This document shows positions 47,618-56,112 of a stretch of 64,000 nucleotides of DNA, one piece after another. A program made the translations under genes and the position numbers. This DNA comes from an uncultured Mycoplasmatota bacterium (lineage in GTDB: Bacteria > Bacillota_I > Bacilli_A > RF39 > UBA660). The stretch's first letter is position 1. Every line of letters begins with the position of its first letter. Where the stretch lies: contig UQVR01000001.1 of NCBI GenBank assembly GCA_900544625.1, positions 29,517-93,516 of the forward strand, in the 5' to 3' direction. The notes under the pieces are model-generated. The model was not told the origin of the DNA and made no database searches. It worked only from the letters and a program-made list of their open reading frames with translations.

Positions 47618-49057
47618 ATGTTTATTAAATTTAAAAAATATATGAAAAATGTTAAAAGTAATATGATTAGTGATTTGCAAGGTTATAAAAATATTGTAAA
47701 TATGTTAGAACTTTGGCCATTAGATTTTCAAAAGTATGTTGAAATGCTAAAAGACACTAAATCAGATGAAGTAATAGACATGCTAAATGAAGTTCTTGGA
47801 GATTTAACAAAATATGATATTAAAAGTGCTAAAGAAAGACTAAAAAAACATATTGGAATGTTAAATACACAAATTTATATATGTGATAGCCAAATTAGGG
47901 CTTTTGATAACGAAAAAGCTATCGGCGCAATTGAAGACTTTCCACTATTTTATGTAACACTAATATCAATAATTTGTAAAAATTGCCTAACAAACAAAGA
48001 AGCTATTAAAATTTTTGGAAGTGCCATTTCCTTTAAAGGTAAGAAAACTGGTGAAAATAAAACTCCCGAAGATTTATGGAAATGTGATTTTGAAAGTTTA
48101 CGACCACTAAGTAATTATTTTGATATTTATGGTAATTTTCAAAATGGGGGAGATGCTGAATTATTTATGATTTTATTTAATCAATTAAGTAAAGCTACAA
48201 GGCTAAAAGAACTTGGTATAAATAATGATGAATTAAAATTAATAAAGTATACTTCTTTATCTAACAAATTAATGATTGAATTAAGAAGTAGTTATGAAGA
48301 ATATTTAAAAACTGCTATAAAAAGAGAAGTGAAACCTGAAATGAAAAAAGAAAAGAAGTCTGAGGTAAGAAAAGAAGCTCTTGGCCCAATTATAGTAGAA
48401 TCTGAAAAGTTAAGTTTTTTAACTAATGAAGATAAAGAAATATATCTTGGAGCATGTAACCTTATAAGCTCTCTTGTTGGCAGAAGTGATTATGACTATT
48501 ACATGGAAGCTTTATTAGATATTCAAAGCCTTGAAGAATTATATAATGATGAAGATAGAGAATATTTTGATGAAATAATAAATGATGCCATTAATAAATT
48601 AAAAATATTATTAAATATGTTTCATATAGATAAAAAGATTAGAAAACCAGAAGTTGTTTTCTTAAATGATATTAAAGGTAATTGCTATTTTAAAGAAGAC
48701 TTAGATAATGTTGATAATAGTTTAAAAAGTAAAATAGATTTATTACTTGAAAAAGTTAAAAGTGGTAATAATCATCGTACAGTTTTAGATGGAAACTTAA
48801 AAGCTGGAGAATTACTATTTATAAATGGTTCTAATCTATCAATTAGTTTTTGTAAAATAGCTTTTGATACATATCTAATTATTGGAGTTCACTCTATAAA
48901 TGAAGGTTTTAACTTAGATATAAATAGATATCATTTAAATAAAAAGTATATTGAAGAATTAAAAGAACTAATGAAAAATGCTGAAGATAGAAATAAAATG
49001 GTTTTAGATGGAAATTTAGTAATTGAAACATCAGTTCCAAGGAAGAAAGTTAAGTAA
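47618..49057 (+). CDS. Hypothetical protein (479 aa), ORF B of the cluster; internal repeat VLDGNL
   Basis: The ribosome-binding site AAGGGGGA precedes the ATG. No known motif. Confidence 0.7.
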   Translation: MFIKFKKYMKNVKSNMISDLQGYKNIVNMLELWPLDFQKYVEMLKDTKSDEVIDMLNEVLGDLTKYDIKSAKERLKKHIGMLNTQIYICDSQIRAFDNEKAIGAIEDFPLFYVTLISIICKNCLTNKEAIKIFGSAISFKGKKTGENKTPEDLWKCDFESLRPLSNYFDIYGNFQNGGDAELFMILFNQLSKATRLKELGINNDELKLIKYTSLSNKLMIELRSSYEEYLKTAIKREVKPEMKKEKKSEVRKEALGPIIVESEKLSFLTNEDKEIYLGACNLISSLVGRSDYDYYMEALLDIQSLEELYNDEDREYFDEIINDAINKLKILLNMFHIDKKIRKPEVVFLNDIKGNCYFKEDLDNVDNSLKSKIDLLLEKVKSGNNHRTVLDGNLKAGELLFINGSNLSISFCKIAFDTYLIIGVHSINEGFNLDINRYHLNKKYIEELKELMKNAEDRNKMVLDGNLVIETSVPRKKVK

Positions 49058-49069
49058 AGGAGAAAAGTT

Positions 49070-50380
49070 ATGAGTGATAATGAAAGATTTACGTTATATA
49101 AATATTACGAATGTTTAGTAAACAAACTAATTAAAATAAGGGGTAGTAGAAAATATTTAAGTGATTCCCTAGAAGAAAAATATGCTACATCTATTAATAG
49201 ATTAATTGATAGTTTTGATTTTTTTGAAGATCCAAAAAAATTAGAGGAAGAATATAGCATTTTAATAAATAATTTAAAAATAAAGTTCAAAGAATATGCT
49301 AATGAAATATTTGCAAGTCATAAAATAACGGCACATATTGATTTAAATTTTGATTGTAATTTTGATACATTTGTTGATCAAGTGCATGAAATAATAAAAG
49401 TTTATGTTAGAAATAGACGTTTAGTATTTAAAACAGAAAAAAGAATCCAAGAATTAACTGAAGGAAAAGAAAAGAACTTAGTAATAATTAATTTTATTGA
49501 TGAAATAAAACGTAAATTAATTGAAATTGATAGTTCTATAGATTTTAATAAAAATATAGATGAAATAAGAAGAATGTTAAAAGAATTATCTACTATGATG
49601 AATAAACATCAAGTATATTGTGAAACAGTTTTAAAAATAGAAAATATAATCGGAGATTGTGCACCAGATTCATTAATAATTTTTCTAAACAATATTAATC
49701 TAGCTCTTTGGGAAGGACGTTATGCATATTTAGATTCATTAGTTTTTGGTATGAATTTATCTTTAGAAAAATTTCAATCAAGAAAAAGTGACGTTTTTTC
49801 TAGTTTAGCTTTAATTAAAGAAAATTATAATACTAGAATAAATTCATTAGGTAAAAATGATTTAAGTAAAATAGATGTTGCCAATAAAATGCTTGCAATG
49901 ATAAAAGAAATATTAAAAAGAGTATTAAAAGATCAGGAAAGTAGAGATATTTTAAGAACTCTTACAAGTATTAAGTTTGAAAATGTCGAAGAAATATATG
50001 ATATAGTTCAATCTAAAACGAAAAATGTTTTTGTTAAAATAAACGAAAAATATGATGGTGAAAATATCTTACTTAAAACAGATTATGCTAATAGTAAACT
50101 TTATTGTACAGGTTTTACATCATTTGGAGAAGAAACATTTGAATTTCATAGATCAACATTTATTAGAAATTATATTAGTTTATATGATTTGTTAACTTCA
50201 GGAAAAATTGATAAAAAATATTTATTAGAATTTGCTAGTATGATTGGAATGCCTTTAGATGAAGATTTGCAAAATTCTAGTGAAATAAGTATAATTAATA
50301 AAGCTGTAGATTATCTTGATGCTAAAAGAGCAATTAATAAAAGCAATCAAAATGTTGTTTTAAAAAGAGAAAAAATTTAA
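49070..50380 (+). CDS. Hypothetical protein (436 aa), ORF C; its C-terminal domain is distantly related to that of ORFs D and E (LKT..., F..Y.S..DLL, ...LKREK tail)
   Basis: The ribosome-binding site AAAGGAG precedes the ATG. It follows the stop of ORF B after a 12 nt gap. Confidence 0.7.
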   Translation: MSDNERFTLYKYYECLVNKLIKIRGSRKYLSDSLEEKYATSINRLIDSFDFFEDPKKLEEEYSILINNLKIKFKEYANEIFASHKITAHIDLNFDCNFDTFVDQVHEIIKVYVRNRRLVFKTEKRIQELTEGKEKNLVIINFIDEIKRKLIEIDSSIDFNKNIDEIRRMLKELSTMMNKHQVYCETVLKIENIIGDCAPDSLIIFLNNINLALWEGRYAYLDSLVFGMNLSLEKFQSRKSDVFSSLALIKENYNTRINSLGKNDLSKIDVANKMLAMIKEILKRVLKDQESRDILRTLTSIKFENVEEIYDIVQSKTKNVFVKINEKYDGENILLKTDYANSKLYCTGFTSFGEETFEFHRSTFIRNYISLYDLLTSGKIDKKYLLEFASMIGMPLDEDLQNSSEISIINKAVDYLDAKRAINKSNQNVVLKREKI

Positions 50381-50392
50381 ATGGAGTAAATC

Positions 50393-51817
50393 ATGGATTA
50401 TAGTGAAGCATTAAAGTTATTTGGATTTACAGGTAATTTTACAAAAGAAGAATTAAAGAAAAGATACTTGGAATTATCTAAAAAATATCATCCAGATTTA
50501 AATGGGGATGAAGAGATGATGAAGAAGATTAATTCCGCATATGAAGTATTAAAAAGTCATAGTGTGTCAAGTGATTTAGTAAAATACTATGATAGTTTAA
50601 AAGAAAGATTGAAATTTTTTGCAAGTAAAACTGTTTATTTGCCTGATACTTTAGAATTTAAATATGCAAAAGAAATTGATGAAGTTATTGAAAAATTTAA
50701 TTTTAATATGTCTAAATCTGCGTTAGATTTATTTTATAATGTTATTTTAGATCATATAAAAGATATATTTGCAAAGTACAAAAAAGAAGTATTAAAAAAT
50801 GTACCCGTATTTTTTGTGAGTAAATTTGAACCAATTAATGATGATTGTTCTTTTGATGATTATGTAAAGAAAGTAAATGAAATTAGAAATAAATATGAAA
50901 AAATTGATAAAGGCTTAAATCAAATTATATTATCTATGTTTAAAGATAAAAATGTTAATAGTAAAATATTAGAAGAGATTTTTGATGTAAAAGAAATAAT
51001 AATTAAAGAAATTATTGATAAAAAAATTACATTAGATGATGGTATATATAAATTACAAGCTGAAATAAAGACAAGAATTTTAAAAATAGAAGCATTAAAT
51101 AATAAAATTTGGAATACTTATAAAGCAATAATGAATAACTTTAATAGAAGAATGAAGGAATTAAATCCTACGGATATAGAAGATATTGATGTTGCTATGA
51201 AAGCGTTTAATAAAGCTATGGCTACATTAAAATCTGTTCAATTAGGTACTGAAGATGAAAAAGTTTTAGGCACTCTTGAAAATTTAACATTTACAAATAG
51301 TGATGAACTTAAAGAAAATGAATATGAATTATATATTACCGCAAATTTTTCTGATGGTGAGGAACCTGAGATTGTTTTGAAAACTGGTGAAAATGGAAAT
51401 CTTGTATCCTTTTTAAAGAAAATTGCTGATATGACAGAAGAAGTTTTTGTGGCTAAAGAAGTGTTTTATAAAAAATATAGTAGTTTTAAAGATGTTTTAA
51501 AGAATTTGGATTTTTTAGGTGATAAAGGTTATGTTCAATATTTAAATACAAAATCTATGGCTACAGCATTATATTATTATGAAAATGCGGGTTGTTATAT
51601 TGTTTTGACAAAAAATAATGAAATAATAATAGTTAGATATAATAAATTTGATTCATTAAGTCCTTTTGTAACGGATATTGCTAGTAGAACGTATAAAGAT
51701 AAGCAAGTACTATACGATAAAATCTATAATAGTTTCTTAAAAAGCAAAAAAGAAATAAAGTTTAAAAATAATGAAAATAATATATTAAAAAGAGAGAAAA
51801 ATAAAGAAAATATCTAG
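50393..51817 (+). CDS. J-domain (DnaJ-like, HPD motif) protein with a roughly 400 aa C-terminal domain of unknown function, ORF D
   Basis: N-terminus LFGFTGNFTKEELKKRYLELSKKYHPDLNGDEEMMKKINSAYEVLK is a canonical J-domain helix II-HPD-helix III. The ribosome-binding site GGAG lies 6 nt upstream. Confidence 0.8.
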   Translation: MDYSEALKLFGFTGNFTKEELKKRYLELSKKYHPDLNGDEEMMKKINSAYEVLKSHSVSSDLVKYYDSLKERLKFFASKTVYLPDTLEFKYAKEIDEVIEKFNFNMSKSALDLFYNVILDHIKDIFAKYKKEVLKNVPVFFVSKFEPINDDCSFDDYVKKVNEIRNKYEKIDKGLNQIILSMFKDKNVNSKILEEIFDVKEIIIKEIIDKKITLDDGIYKLQAEIKTRILKIEALNNKIWNTYKAIMNNFNRRMKELNPTDIEDIDVAMKAFNKAMATLKSVQLGTEDEKVLGTLENLTFTNSDELKENEYELYITANFSDGEEPEIVLKTGENGNLVSFLKKIADMTEEVFVAKEVFYKKYSSFKDVLKNLDFLGDKGYVQYLNTKSMATALYYYENAGCYIVLTKNNEIIIVRYNKFDSLSPFVTDIASRTYKDKQVLYDKIYNSFLKSKKEIKFKNNENNILKREKNKENI

Positions 51818-51844
51818 ACAAAAAACAAAGAAAGAAGAGAGAAA

Positions 51845-52537
51845 ATGAAGGAAAATATGTACAGAGACATTTATAAAATGTTGGTAGATAAATTAAAAAA
51901 TAGATTGATGGAATTGCAATCAACCGATTTAGAAGAAATTAATAATGCTTTGCAAACATTTAATAAAGCTATGGTTATATTAAAAGCTGTTCAATTTGGT
52001 GCTGAAGATGAAAAAGTTTTAGGTACCCTTGGAAATTTAAAATTTATAGGTAAAGACGAAATACATGAAGATTATAAATATGAATTATATATATCAGCTA
52101 AAGTTTCTGAAGATGAGGTTCCAGAAATTGTTTTAAAAACTGGCAGAGTTGGTAATTTTGTATCTTATTTAAAGAAAAGCGATAATGGTACGGAACCAAC
52201 AGAGACATTTTATATGTCTAGTGATAAATTTTATGAAAAATATCGTATGTTTACAGAATATTTAAAACAAGCTTATTTTCAAGGAAAACGTTGTTTCGTA
52301 AAAGAAACATCAAGTGATGCAACATTGTTATATTTTTTTGAAGATATAAGTATTGTTTCGATTTTAAAGAATGCAAATGTAATTGTTGCAAAATATAGCG
52401 ATATTTCGATTGAACCCCCTAATAATTGTGATGTAGCTGCTAGAAAATATAAAGATGAACGAATACTTTATTATAAAATCTATAATAGTTTCTTTGAAAG
52501 AGAAGAAGAAATAAAGTTAAAACGCGAAAAAAAATAA
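51845..52537 (+). CDS. Truncated paralogue of the ORF D C-terminal domain with an N-terminal 10 codon leader identical to aspS (chimeric ORF E)
   Basis: Residues 1-10 (MKENMYRDIY) match the aspS start, and 28 of the first 30 nucleotides are identical. The remainder is about 65% identical to ORF D residues about 270-340 and about 35-40% identical thereafter. Confidence 0.55.
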   Translation: MKENMYRDIYKMLVDKLKNRLMELQSTDLEEINNALQTFNKAMVILKAVQFGAEDEKVLGTLGNLKFIGKDEIHEDYKYELYISAKVSEDEVPEIVLKTGRVGNFVSYLKKSDNGTEPTETFYMSSDKFYEKYRMFTEYLKQAYFQGKRCFVKETSSDATLLYFFEDISIVSILKNANVIVAKYSDISIEPPNNCDVAARKYKDERILYYKIYNSFFEREEEIKLKREKK

Positions 52538-52547
52538 ATAAAATATC

Positions 52548-52576
52548 TAGACAAATGATTAAAAAAGTAGTATATT
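52548..52576 (+). promoter_or_regulatory. Promoter of the aspS leader (TAGACA-17-TATATT)
   Basis: Sequence tagacaaatgattaaaaaagtagtatatt. Confidence 0.45.
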
Positions 52577-52584
52577 CTACTTAT

Positions 52585-52800
52585 GATTTATTTGGTAAAC
52601 CAGTAGGTAACTGATAGTTTATAGAGAACTAGTGGATGGTGAAAACTAGTAACTTAAGTTAGTGAAGATAGTACCTTGAAAGTAAACGGGTAAGCCCGAT
52701 ATAGCAAATTAAGATGCATAGAATTCTATGAATTAAGGTGGCACCGCGGGTTATACTCGTCCTTAAGCTAAATTAATTTATAGAATTTTTTATATTTATG
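52585..52800 (+). promoter_or_regulatory. T-box riboswitch leader, Asp-specific (GAU specifier; discriminator-pairing C)
   Basis: Stem I AGAGA element. Specifier-loop candidate GAUA at 52663-52666. Conserved T-box sequence AATTAAGGTGGCACCGCGGG at 52731-52750, followed by an AT-rich hairpin and a U-run before aspS. Confidence 0.7.
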
Positions 52801-52814
52801 GAGGAGTTAAGAAT

Positions 52815-54554
52815 ATGAAAGAAAATATGTACAGAGATATTTATTGTGGAGAAGTAAATTCTTCATATATTGGTAAAAATATTAGATTAGCTGGATGGGT
52901 TAATAGTATTAGAAATCTTGGTAATTTAGTATTTATTACACTAAGAGATGAAACAGGTATTGTGCAATTAATATCTGAAGATGTAGAAAAATATAAGAAT
53001 TTACATCGTGAAGCAACAGTTACAATTACTGGGGTAGTTGAAGCTAGAACACCAGATATGGTTAACAAAAACATGAAAACCGGAGAAATTGAAGTTAGAC
53101 TTGAGACACTTGAAGTTCTTGGTGATTGTATAAATGTTTTACCATTTGAAATTAATAAATCTAAAGAATCTAATGAAGATACAAGACTTAAGTATCGTTA
53201 TCTAGATTTAAGAAATAAAGAAGTTCATGATAATATTATATTTAGAAGTAAGATTATGGATTTTTTAAGAAAAACTATGAAAGAAATGGACTTTTTAGAA
53301 GTGCAAACACCAATTATTACAGCAACAAGTCCAGAAGGAGCCAGAGACTTTATAATTCCTTCTAGAAAATTTGCAGGTAAGTTTTATGCGTTACCTCAAT
53401 CACCACAAATATTTAAACAATTATTAATGGTATCTGGATTTAATAAATATTTCCAAATAGCACCATGTTTTAGAGATGAAGATCCAAGAAGTGATAGATT
53501 GTATGGTGAATTTTATCAACTTGACTTTGAAATGAGTTTTGCAACTGATGAAGATGTATATAAAGTGGGAGAAAAAGTATTTTATGATGTATTTAGTACA
53601 TTTAGTGAAAAATATGTAAGTCCAGCACCTTTTAGAAGAATTAAGTTTAAAGATGCAATACTAAAATATGGTAGTGATAAACCAGATTTAAGAAACCCAT
53701 TAATAATCGAAGATATTTCTGATATAATGGGTAAAAGTGATTTTGCACCATTTAAAGATACAGTTGTTAGATGTATTAAAGTAGAAAACATTGAAAAATC
53801 TAATTCATGGTATAAAACAATGGAAGAATATGTAAAAGGTCTTCATGGTAATTTAGGTTATATTCAAGTAAAGGAAGGTATGGAATTAAAATCATCTTTG
53901 ACTAAGTTTATGAGTGATGAAGTAAAGAATGAATTGATTGAAAAAATGAATTTACATGAAAATGATGCATTATTTATTGTAGCAGATAAAAACAGATGTG
54001 CAAGAATAATGGGTAATCTACGTACTAAATTAGGTAATGAGCTAGATTTAATTGATAAGAATAGATATGAATTTTGTATTATTAATGATTTTCCATTTTA
54101 TGAAGAAAATGAAGAAACTGGAGCAATTGAATTCTCTCATAACCCATTTAGTATGCCAAAAGGTGGGTTAGATGCTTTAAATAATAAAAATCCATTTGAA
54201 ATTGAAGCATTCCAATATGATTTTGTGTGTAATGGGTATGAAATGGCTTCTGGTGGAGTTCGTAACCATTCTCCAGAAATACTTAAAAAAGCTTTTGAAC
54301 TAGTTGGTTATGGTGAAGATATTGTAAGAAGTAAATTTCCAAGTTTATATGAAGCGTTTAAATATGGAGCTCCTCCACATGCTGGTATGGCTCCGGGTAT
54401 TGACAGAATTATAATGCTTTTAAAAGATGAAGAAAATATTAGAGAAATTGTACCATTCCCAATTGGTGCTAATGGGGCAGATGCTATGATGGGGTGCCCT
54501 AGTGAAGCATTCCCAGAACAATTAAAAGAAGCACATATAAAGTTAGATTTATAG
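52815..54554 (+). CDS. aspS: Aspartyl-tRNA synthetase (bacterial type)
   Basis: The 579 aa product has an N-terminal OB fold, class II motifs FRDEDPRSDR and QLDFEMSF, a GAD insertion and motif 3 GMAPGIDRIIM. Confidence 0.95.
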   Translation: MKENMYRDIYCGEVNSSYIGKNIRLAGWVNSIRNLGNLVFITLRDETGIVQLISEDVEKYKNLHREATVTITGVVEARTPDMVNKNMKTGEIEVRLETLEVLGDCINVLPFEINKSKESNEDTRLKYRYLDLRNKEVHDNIIFRSKIMDFLRKTMKEMDFLEVQTPIITATSPEGARDFIIPSRKFAGKFYALPQSPQIFKQLLMVSGFNKYFQIAPCFRDEDPRSDRLYGEFYQLDFEMSFATDEDVYKVGEKVFYDVFSTFSEKYVSPAPFRRIKFKDAILKYGSDKPDLRNPLIIEDISDIMGKSDFAPFKDTVVRCIKVENIEKSNSWYKTMEEYVKGLHGNLGYIQVKEGMELKSSLTKFMSDEVKNELIEKMNLHENDALFIVADKNRCARIMGNLRTKLGNELDLIDKNRYEFCIINDFPFYEENEETGAIEFSHNPFSMPKGGLDALNNKNPFEIEAFQYDFVCNGYEMASGGVRNHSPEILKKAFELVGYGEDIVRSKFPSLYEAFKYGAPPHAGMAPGIDRIIMLLKDEENIREIVPFPIGANGADAMMGCPSEAFPEQLKEAHIKLDL

Positions 54555-55404: not shown

Positions 55405-56112
55405 ATGATATTATGTGGAAAGAAAGCAAGATTGTATAATTGTTTAATAGAAATTTTAAATCAACATATGGATAATTATAATTATGAATTTATCATCGGA
55501 AAGAAAGATGGTAATAAATATTATACTAATAATTTGGAAAATATTGAAATTCATAAAAAAAATTCTGATGATTTAGTTAGTGATGTAGAAGTAATAAGTT
55601 TAGGATATAATTTATTTAAAAGATTTGGATTAGATGATATAGAATTAAGTATTAGTTGTAATGAGGAAGTATTAAACTTACTTGAAGCATTAGAAATATA
55701 TTGTATAAATGATATTGAAAGTAATGAATTAAATTGGAATTATATTTATGAAGATGTAATAGTAGGTGTTGGATGCAAAAATAATAATGAAATTAATATT
55801 AAAATAAATATTGAAACATTGATAAATGAAGTAATGAATATTATTAGAGATAATGCTTTGGATATGAACATTGATGTATGTATTATTGGAGTAAGTGAAG
55901 AAGAAAGTTATCATGCTTTAAAAATAGCACAAGAATTAAGAATGAATAATATTAATGTTGTATTGAATGAAAAAGTAAATAGTAAATTTAATATAAATTT
56001 AGATGATGAAACTTTAAGTAAAGGTATTGTTAGTATAAAAGATAATTATACTAATGAAGAAATTAAATTAGATGAAGCAGATATATTAGAATATGTTTTA
56101 GGAAATATATAG
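55405..56112 (+). CDS. HisRS-like fragment: histidyl-tRNA-synthetase-derived protein retaining the post-motif-2 linker and the anticodon-binding domain but lacking class II motifs 1-3
   Basis: FGLDDIELSISCNEEVL resembles the HisRS LGL..V.L.INSLG segment. The C-terminus IDVCIIGVSEEESYHALKIAQELRMNNINVV...LSKGIVSIKDNYTNEEIKLDEADILEYV resembles the HisRS anticodon-binding domain with a roughly 20 aa deletion. Confidence 0.5.
   Translation: MILCGKKARLYNCLIEILNQHMDNYNYEFIIGKKDGNKYYTNNLENIEIHKKNSDDLVSDVEVISLGYNLFKRFGLDDIELSISCNEEVLNLLEALEIYCINDIESNELNWNYIYEDVIVGVGCKNNNEINIKINIETLINEVMNIIRDNALDMNIDVCIIGVSEEESYHALKIAQELRMNNINVVLNEKVNSKFNINLDDETLSKGIVSIKDNYTNEEIKLDEADILEYVLGNI

Follow-up and report, generated by a model that had tools for sequence, protein, structure and literature searches.

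The stretch of DNA analysed here, referred to as the window, comprises 64,000 nucleotides of an uncultured Mycoplasmatota bacterium (GenBank assembly GCA_900544625.1, contig UQVR01000001.1, positions 29,517 to 93,516) and contains a small open reading frame (ORF), E, just upstream of the aspartyl-tRNA synthetase gene aspS and its leader. E (51845–52537; this and the other parts of the locus from D to aspS are on the plus strand) is very probably a chimeric gene, born at the join point of a short-junction tandem duplication. Its 230-residue product consists of the first ten residues of AspS followed by a counterpart of residues 244–474 of the protein encoded by the upstream gene D, and it is without the J domain that D carries. 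Both parents are intact, D (50393–51817) encoding a 474-residue protein with its J domain, and aspS (52815–54554) a 579-residue protein with all of its domains.

The head of E is nearly the same as the start of aspS. The first 30 nucleotides of E, 51845–51874 (ATGAAGGAAAATATGTACAGAGACATTTAT), match those of aspS, 52815–52844 (ATGAAAGAAAATATGTACAGAGATATTTAT), which were the source of the head, at 28 positions, with both mismatches being synonymous. The likeness reaches 5 nt beyond the ATG into the 5′ untranslated region, such that the aspS-derived head as a whole spans 51840–51874 and has 32 of 35 nucleotides in common with 52810–52844. When the window was searched for the 30-mer, allowing up to three mismatches, only these two sites were found, and there was no match in 100 dinucleotide-preserving shuffles. 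An earlier interpretation, made from the letters of the sequence and here called the sequence-only reading, had pointed out the 28 of 30 match and the common N-terminus MKENMYRDIY; the recount and the shuffles bear out the first, and the translations of E and aspS the second. The part common to E and aspS is restricted to these ten codons, which lie ahead of the conserved YCGE at the start of the OB fold. E is not itself an aspartyl-tRNA synthetase, as neither the OB fold nor the class II catalytic core is found in it.

From codon 11 onwards E corresponds to D, beginning at D codon 244. BLASTP aligned residues 237–458 of D with residues 4–226 of E (45% identity over 226 residues, expectation value 2e-57), and at the DNA level the two copies are 72–75% identical in register; the alignment of residues 4–10 of E with 237–243 of D is merely microhomology at the junction. 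The sequence-only reading had therefore recognised the two components of the fusion correctly, though it placed the start of the D-like part at about residue 270 rather than 244. From the register of the repeat, the protein alignment and the breakpoint codons, the counterpart of the duplicated unit in D runs from codon 244 to the stop codon and on into a −35 motif (51122–51822). The junction itself, TTAT/AAA at 51871–51877 (the slash marks the join), connects codon 10 of aspS (Tyr) in frame with codon 244 of D (Lys). In a comparison of aspS, E and eight D alleles, aspS reads GATATTTAT/TGT, D reads GATACTTAT/AAA and E reads GAYATTTAT/AAA; most D alleles have GAT (or AAT) ACT TAT/AAA at the breakpoint and aspS has GAT ATT TAT/TGT, giving a microhomology of exactly TTAT, and of 8 of 9 nucleotides overall. 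In the AlphaFold2 (AF2) model of D, which has a mean predicted local distance difference test score (pLDDT) of 84.4, with helices up to residue 296 and strands between 312 and 423, the breakpoint is located within a long predicted helix (214–256). The model of E (pLDDT 82.6) is composed of a helical hairpin, a beta-rich core and C-terminal helices, with the residues derived from aspS extending the D-type helix.

The arrangement is not confined to a single assembly. It is present on contigs from independent assemblies (L001–L010, L094–L117 and L120–L121), where the E copy has the two fixed differences seen in the window, and the exact E protein is found on contigs of several independent human-gut metagenome assemblies. 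A scan of metagenomes with a DNA pattern covering the junction alone gave 20 further loci, all of the window type, and look-ups of D alleles gave six more; these metagenome loci share the order D, a spacer of 27–36 nt, E, leader and aspS. One member of the 90% protein cluster of E is recorded on 398 contigs. Because the same layout is seen in more than 35 independent assemblies, the assembly artefact or collapsed repeat that the sequence-only reading had named as its possible undoing is excluded.

A further contig, L013, which comes from a sister lineage, is organised as a tandem duplication of the stretch between D codon 244 and aspS codon 10 would predict. In front of E it has the −35 motif, another T-box leader, the ribosome-binding site (RBS) GGAGGAG and the ten aspS codons, and the same series occurs again before aspS, with a period of 963 nt from start to start. 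The second leader (43–225 of the contig; 84.4 bits, expectation value 6.5e-17) scores below the gathering threshold of 93 for T-box leaders and has a weaker terminator, though it shares 90% identity over 271 nt with the copy next to aspS, and both copies have a GAU specifier. The aspS of L013 is about 96% identical over the 440 nt available. The spacer between D and E in the window, which is 27 nt in total, aligns to both ends of the L013 unit with about 245 nt missing in between, these being the −10 box, the T-box leader and the RBS. In L013, then, the promoter, RBS and start codon of aspS precede E, whereas the window keeps only the start codon and the ten codons. The purine-rich 22 nt of the spacer (51823–51844), which are identical in the 20 further loci, are interpreted as a probable deletion scar, the −10 box, T-box leader and GGAGGAG occupying this place in L013. 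A metagenome scan with a pattern combining the RBS, the aspS head and the E junction gave no match, and L013 is the only example of the intermediate after both metagenome scans. With its complete duplicated unit it supports the proposal of the sequence-only reading that a duplication junction at the start of aspS left the 30-nt repeat as its footprint.

The comparison of lineages also gives the direction of the copying. All lineages examined, the E-less L011, L118, L122 and L123 among them, have an identical 30-mer at the start of aspS, and more distant uncultured Bacilli, in which AspS is 59–77% identical and there is no D/E cluster, have AspS N-termini of this kind (MKGNIYRDIYCGEV, MANIYRNIYCGNV). 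Variation is restricted to the E copy, with AAG at codon 2 and GAC at codon 8 fixed and Lys5 and Asn8 polymorphic. Since the aspS copy is invariant across lineages, the aligned sequences identify aspS as the donor of the 30-mer, with the copying from aspS to E. The copies of the 30-mer differ at 2–4 positions, and the redundant leader copy in L013 has diverged to a similar extent (10–14%); these differences need no special explanation because aspS is frozen by selection and only the E copy is free to change. We considered whether ongoing conversion or selection might keep the two 30-mers alike, but this is unneeded, as E has fixed differences and private polymorphisms while aspS is invariant.

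In two pairs of related contigs, L118/L119 and L011/L122, with aspS DNA 92–93% identical, D is followed directly by the promoter, the leader and aspS. The clean arrangement of D, leader and aspS in L118, L011 and L122 fits either a precise loss of the duplication or its never having been present. The comparison of the locus between relatives, as suggested by the sequence-only reading, gives a divided picture, with E present in loci of the window type and absent from these three contigs. Amongst species-representative genomes scanned with AspS, a set that did not include the window species and in which the best match was a metagenome-assembled genome of an uncultured Bacilli at 77% identity, none of 80 loci had D or E near aspS.

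The ancestral order would have been D, the aspS promoter, the Asp T-box leader, the RBS and aspS, with the stop codon of D lying inside the −35 box. An illegitimate exchange at the 9-nt near-repeat formed by codons 8–10 of aspS (GATATTTAT) and codons 241–243 of D (GATACTTAT) is then likely to have duplicated a segment of about 960 nt, from D codon 244 to aspS codon 10. The predicted product is an intact D, the promoter, T-box and RBS, the fusion of aspS codons 1–10 to D codons 244–474 that is E, a second promoter, T-box and RBS, and an intact aspS. In this state, represented by L013, E would have obtained from aspS its promoter, an Asp-responsive T-box attenuator, an RBS and a start codon. In the lineage of the window a second step would have removed about 245 nt with the −10 box, T-box leader and RBS from the upstream copy, with the −35 relic, the purine-rich spacer of 22 nt and the ten aspS codons, start codon included, left behind. 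This deletion presumably placed E in the transcription unit of D, where it may be expressed by unattenuated read-through, and it would also have taken away the long direct repeat by which recombination could delete E. Loss of E from L118 and L011 by recombination between the two leader copies would have been easy. In this account the anatomy, the L013 intermediate, the copying direction and the constraint on E are observed, and the pattern of transcription, the stabilisation and the biochemical role are inferred.

A number of points weigh against such a history. The intermediate is a single contig of 1.7 kb with 2.6x coverage, too short on its upstream side to show D. E is 67–69% identical in nucleotides to every D allele, while the D alleles are 84–96% alike, and the synonymous divergence (dS) between D codons 244–474 and E is 0.60, which is greater than the 0.44 for aspS between the window and L011. 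Together these values suggest that the duplication is older than the split from the E-less lineages, with E having been lost there, or that E diverged fast at an early stage; gene conversion between D and E (seen in L010, in protein P0010 and in the mosaic E of L013) blurs the dating. The E-type C-terminal domain found upstream of D in L011 bears another head, for which a one-step history does not account. Lastly, in the window E is without a canonical RBS containing GG.

The last point bears on whether E is a working gene. The spacer before E has no GG core, and its predicted pairing with an assumed Firmicute-type 16S tail (−7.3 kcal/mol) is within the range of the neighbouring genes (34 other genes compared). 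An internal start at Met5, served by an AAGGA RBS arising from an A-to-G change in codon 2 of E, was considered and rejected, as common alleles have Lys at codon 5. To assess constraint, 35 complete loci were reduced to 24 nucleotide haplotypes and, after removal of L010 (a hybrid), L013 and L112 (evidently chimeric), to 21 of the window type. In L112, a 2366-bp contig with a coverage of 1.8, codons 1–167 of E run into the C-terminus of a UvrD/AddA-like helicase to give a 526-residue ORF, probably through chimeric assembly. All 21 window-type haplotypes are intact, with 230–234 codons. Between them they have at least 29 synonymous and 43 nonsynonymous changes which, at about 4.4 nonsynonymous sites per synonymous site, corresponds to a ratio of about 0.34; under neutrality some 13 synonymous changes would be expected. 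The pairwise ratio of nonsynonymous to synonymous divergence (dN/dS) is 0.3–0.4 where the counts are adequate, similar to that of the neighbouring genes B, C and D and far above the 0.03 of aspS, and E persists across lineages in which aspS differs by 5%.

It is conceivable, though we consider it unlikely, that E is a leftover without function whose reading frame has stayed open only through the recency of the duplication, in which case the 30-nt identity would have no present role. The missing canonical RBS would agree with this, as would pairwise dN/dS values near 1 where there are few changes, the tolerance of the E head for M5K, R7S and D8N, and the existence of D-to-E conversions and of truncated database entries. 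Nor does E have a known domain or fold: it has no match in Pfam or NCBIfam and no J domain with an HPD motif, its model gave no significant fold match in the PDB, and PADLOC and NCBIfam scans of A, B, C and E found nothing. A leftover is, however, difficult to reconcile with 21 intact haplotypes out of 21, the clear excess of synonymous changes (29 against about 13), a constraint like that on B, C and D, the confidence of the AF2 model and the retention of E over a 5% divergence of aspS. The most likely interpretation is that E is a maintained gene encoding a J-less copy of the client-side domain of D, and the term fossil, applied to the junction in the sequence-only reading, undersells E given its intact haplotypes and synonymous excess. 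Most plausibly E would act as a partner or competitor of D for whatever the C-terminal domain binds. A more elaborate proposal is that E serves the D/DnaK system as a J-less regulator or partner and was born together with a riboswitch copy, such that E in L013 is under the control of the Asp T-box and the loss of the leader in the window was an adaptive rewiring that locked the gene in. This seems rather improbable; if true, L013 would have a chaperone-adaptor module tied to the charging of tRNA-Asp, and the locus would preserve a stepwise gene birth in which a riboswitch was captured and then released.

Rather than arising in one step, the E-type domain could be an older paralogue within the cluster to which a larger duplication or a recombination, instead of a direct duplication of the 3′ half of D itself, added the head and leader of aspS. 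Such a two-step origin would account for the equal distance of E from all D alleles and for the dS of 0.60 against 0.44, and would be consistent both with a 173-residue ORF in L011, which has the 13-residue gap and FFEREEEIKLKREK tail typical of E, and with a cluster that is visibly prone to repeated duplication and conversion. Most E alleles, though, end in KNKENI with the TAG inside the −35 motif, and in L013 and in the window the 3′ end of E runs into this motif just as that of D does, as predicted for a contiguous unit reaching from D to aspS. Several additional duplications and deletions would also be required, and the 3′ tract in common with the L011 ORF could equally be a recombination patch between close species. 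We judge a two-step origin to be improbable beside the single tandem duplication.

The 173-residue ORF belongs to a second, independent chimera, located between C and D (L011 7912–8522; also in L012 and L123) and absent from L122, which is of the same species. It begins with 30 codons from the start of the J-domain gene, after which comes, in another frame, the E-type C-terminal domain, which has the 13-residue C-terminal gap and FFEREEEIKLKREK tail as in E. Its last 60 or so nucleotides are near-identical to the 3′ end of E in the window by eye, rather than by computation, and in a blastn comparison of E with the ORF the identity was 66% over the whole 510-nt alignment. This type of chimera is polymorphic within the species and in L123 is further decayed (33 + 136 + 36 residues). 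A derivation of the L011 arrangement, with a J-domain head and an E-type domain upstream of D, in a few steps was attempted from either the one-step or the two-step origin and none was obtained. Conversion is seen in L010 (8001–8726, protein P0009) and in protein P0010, in which the body of E from about codon 63 to the stop codon is D sequence; in L010 the converted part is identical to the D of its own strain, which points to D-to-E tracts at least about 540 nt long. The locus is thus a hot spot at which copies of the domain are duplicated, deleted and converted.

The sequence-only reading had also suggested that the junction may be a fossil of the insertion or rearrangement of the whole cluster at a hisS-aspS locus. 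The cluster A–E does lie between the relA-dtd-gtrA side and aspS, which we take, by analogy with Bacillus subtilis, to be the place where hisS would be expected, and relatives with AspS at about 60–77% identity have no D or E near aspS. The E-less sisters L011/L122 and L118, however, already have the same cluster with D directly 5′ of the aspS promoter and T-box and no chimera, from which it follows that the junction records a later and local tandem duplication within an existing arrangement. The duplicated unit is only about 960 nt and confined to the 3′ half of D and the 5′ end of aspS, and as a distant homologue of D (37% identity) is found in an unrelated context the arrival of the family is a separate question. 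The insertion must be regarded as highly improbable as the origin of the junction. As for the hisS-aspS locus of that reading, no complete hisS adjoins aspS and only a HisS-like remnant of 235 residues lies downstream. An origin of the 30-nt identity by chance, by convergence towards a favourable start or through faulty assembly is already refuted, despite the AT-rich, low-complexity nature of the region, by the absence of a match in all 100 shuffles, the extension of the identity to synonymous sites and the 5′ untranslated region, the duplication of the entire leader in L013 and the agreement of more than 35 independent assemblies.

The leader of aspS in the window has the characteristics of a T-box, namely a score above the gathering threshold, a specifier loop and the T-box sequence. 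It is located at 52586–52767 (RF00230, 100.8 bits against a gathering score of 93, expectation value 4.7e-21) and the specifier is GAU (Asp), with GAA-GAU-A read in the specifier loop of the RF00230 alignment. An intrinsic terminator (52720–52795) has an AT-rich outer stem of 17 bp, formed by an inverted repeat, with a U run after it; its folding energy is −24.5 kcal/mol (z = −4.4), and none of 200 shuffles was as good. The RBS, GGAGGAG at 52800–52806, was read directly from the sequence; in L013, unlike in the window, it also precedes E. A candidate promoter, TAGACA-17-TATATT, is situated 10 nt upstream of the start of the T-box model within 52540–52576. The promoter-like part itself (52548–52576) has 10 of 12 positions matching and is conserved in all lineages, and because such sites are not enriched in this AT-rich region its support is its position and conservation. 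Its −35 box, TAGACA, is carried by the functional copy (52540–52555) of a 16-nt motif, AAAATATCTAGACAAA, which is invariant across six aligned intergenic regions, and of which a relic copy is found at 51807–51822 with the TAG stop codon of D (51815–51817) inside it. The motif, which holds the palindrome TCTAGA, does not vary between any of the copies examined, and this extends to the upstream relic, whose −10 box has been lost. AspS itself matches Pfam tRNA-synt_2 (339 bits) and has an OB fold and a GAD domain.

D has a J domain (residues 11–55) with the HPD motif (KYHPDL), scoring 43.6 bits with Pfam DnaJ (PF00226) against a cut-off of 27.8, followed by a helical middle region and a lineage-specific, beta-rich C-terminal domain that is the parent of the body of E. 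The C-terminal module is confined to a narrow group of gut Bacilli, with about 19 of 1.84 billion representatives at an expectation value below 1e-30; the exhaustive profile search was dominated by J-domain matches, the rows of the alignment being mostly full-length D, and is informative only as to the restriction of the domain. No match to the module of D and E was found in Pfam, NCBIfam or PADLOC and no significant fold match in the PDB. C, which like D ends in LKREK, is distantly paralogous to it (24% identity). When the region of B, C and D (47618–51817) was compared with L011, L118 and L120, the proteins of the cluster were found to evolve very fast relative to aspS: D is 68–73% identical between lineages whose aspS DNA is 92–93% identical, with a dN/dS of 0.4–0.7, and for C the nonsynonymous divergence is as high as 0.6–0.7. 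L007 (6873–7964) has a D allele of 363 residues with an internal deletion of about 113 residues in the C-terminal domain; the allele is recorded on a contig of 275 kb, and five contigs are recorded for its 90% protein cluster, P0072.

The order of genes in the window is proS, a flippase gene (minus strand), relA, dtd, gtrA, A (minus strand), B, C, D and E, and after E the leader and aspS, F, the HisS-like remnant, H, asnS, a kinase-like gene and gatC/gatA. The HisS-like ORF (55405–56112) matches only the C-terminal, anticodon-binding part of HisS, with 25.5 bits to positions 304–363 of TIGR00442 and a weak match to PF03129, both far below the family cut-offs, and is 70% identical in a sister species. 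In L007 (12593–12832) and L118 (10363–10602) a small helix-turn-helix gene of the XRE type, absent from the window, is inserted together with extra ORFs between the 240-residue gene downstream of aspS and the HisS-like remnant.

The closest parallel is provided by short-junction tandem duplications in Staphylococcus aureus, where the 5′ ends of nusG or rplK, with promoter, RBS and start codon, become fused to sigH (PMC3486894). In nusG'-'sigH and rplK'-'sigH, repeats of 7–8 bp flank units of 1210 and 1888 bp, the chimera is driven by the promoter, RBS and start codon of the downstream gene, and such chimeras arise rarely (≤1e-5) as unstable laboratory variants in which a full-length regulator is switched on (PMC3486894). 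As in nusG'-'sigH, a tandem unit of about 1 kb (963 nt here) extends from inside an upstream gene into the 5′ end of the downstream one, the fusion is in frame at a repeat of 4–9 nt with the parental genes left intact, and the chimera, to judge by the sequence of L013, would inherit the promoter, RBS and start codon of the downstream gene. The head-to-tail unit, the intact parents and the in-frame fusion at a microhomology are all found. In contrast to nusG'-'sigH, E is fixed in a natural species, the copy of D is truncated, having neither the J domain nor the helical region, the duplicated unit included a riboswitch, and a second deletion removed the inherited promoter, riboswitch and RBS to leave the start codon and ten codons. 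E is therefore a well-preserved new example of a known process and involves no new mechanism.

As a T-box (RF00230) the aspS leader of the window is standard, attenuating transcription with a GAU specifier and a terminator, and the upstream copy in L013 retains the specifier, the T-box sequence and a weaker terminator. Unlike usual T-boxes, this second copy fronts a gene unrelated to amino-acid supply, one of its stems has decayed, and in the window the copy is gone. Compared with J-domain co-chaperones (PF00226), D combines a J domain and HPD motif with a private C-terminal module of which E is a copy; being without the J domain, E cannot itself stimulate DnaK.

Chimeras formed by tandem duplication are well known from laboratory selections and have rarely been caught in nature with a legible history. 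Here three stages survive in closely related gut bacteria, namely the un-duplicated locus, the full duplication with its T-box riboswitch, and the trimmed and fixed form. The locus offers a natural case study of how a new gene is made from parts of two neighbours and its control then rewired, and it marks a fast-evolving, recombining family of J-domain proteins in an uncultured lineage of human-gut Bacilli with small genomes of about 1.2 Mb.

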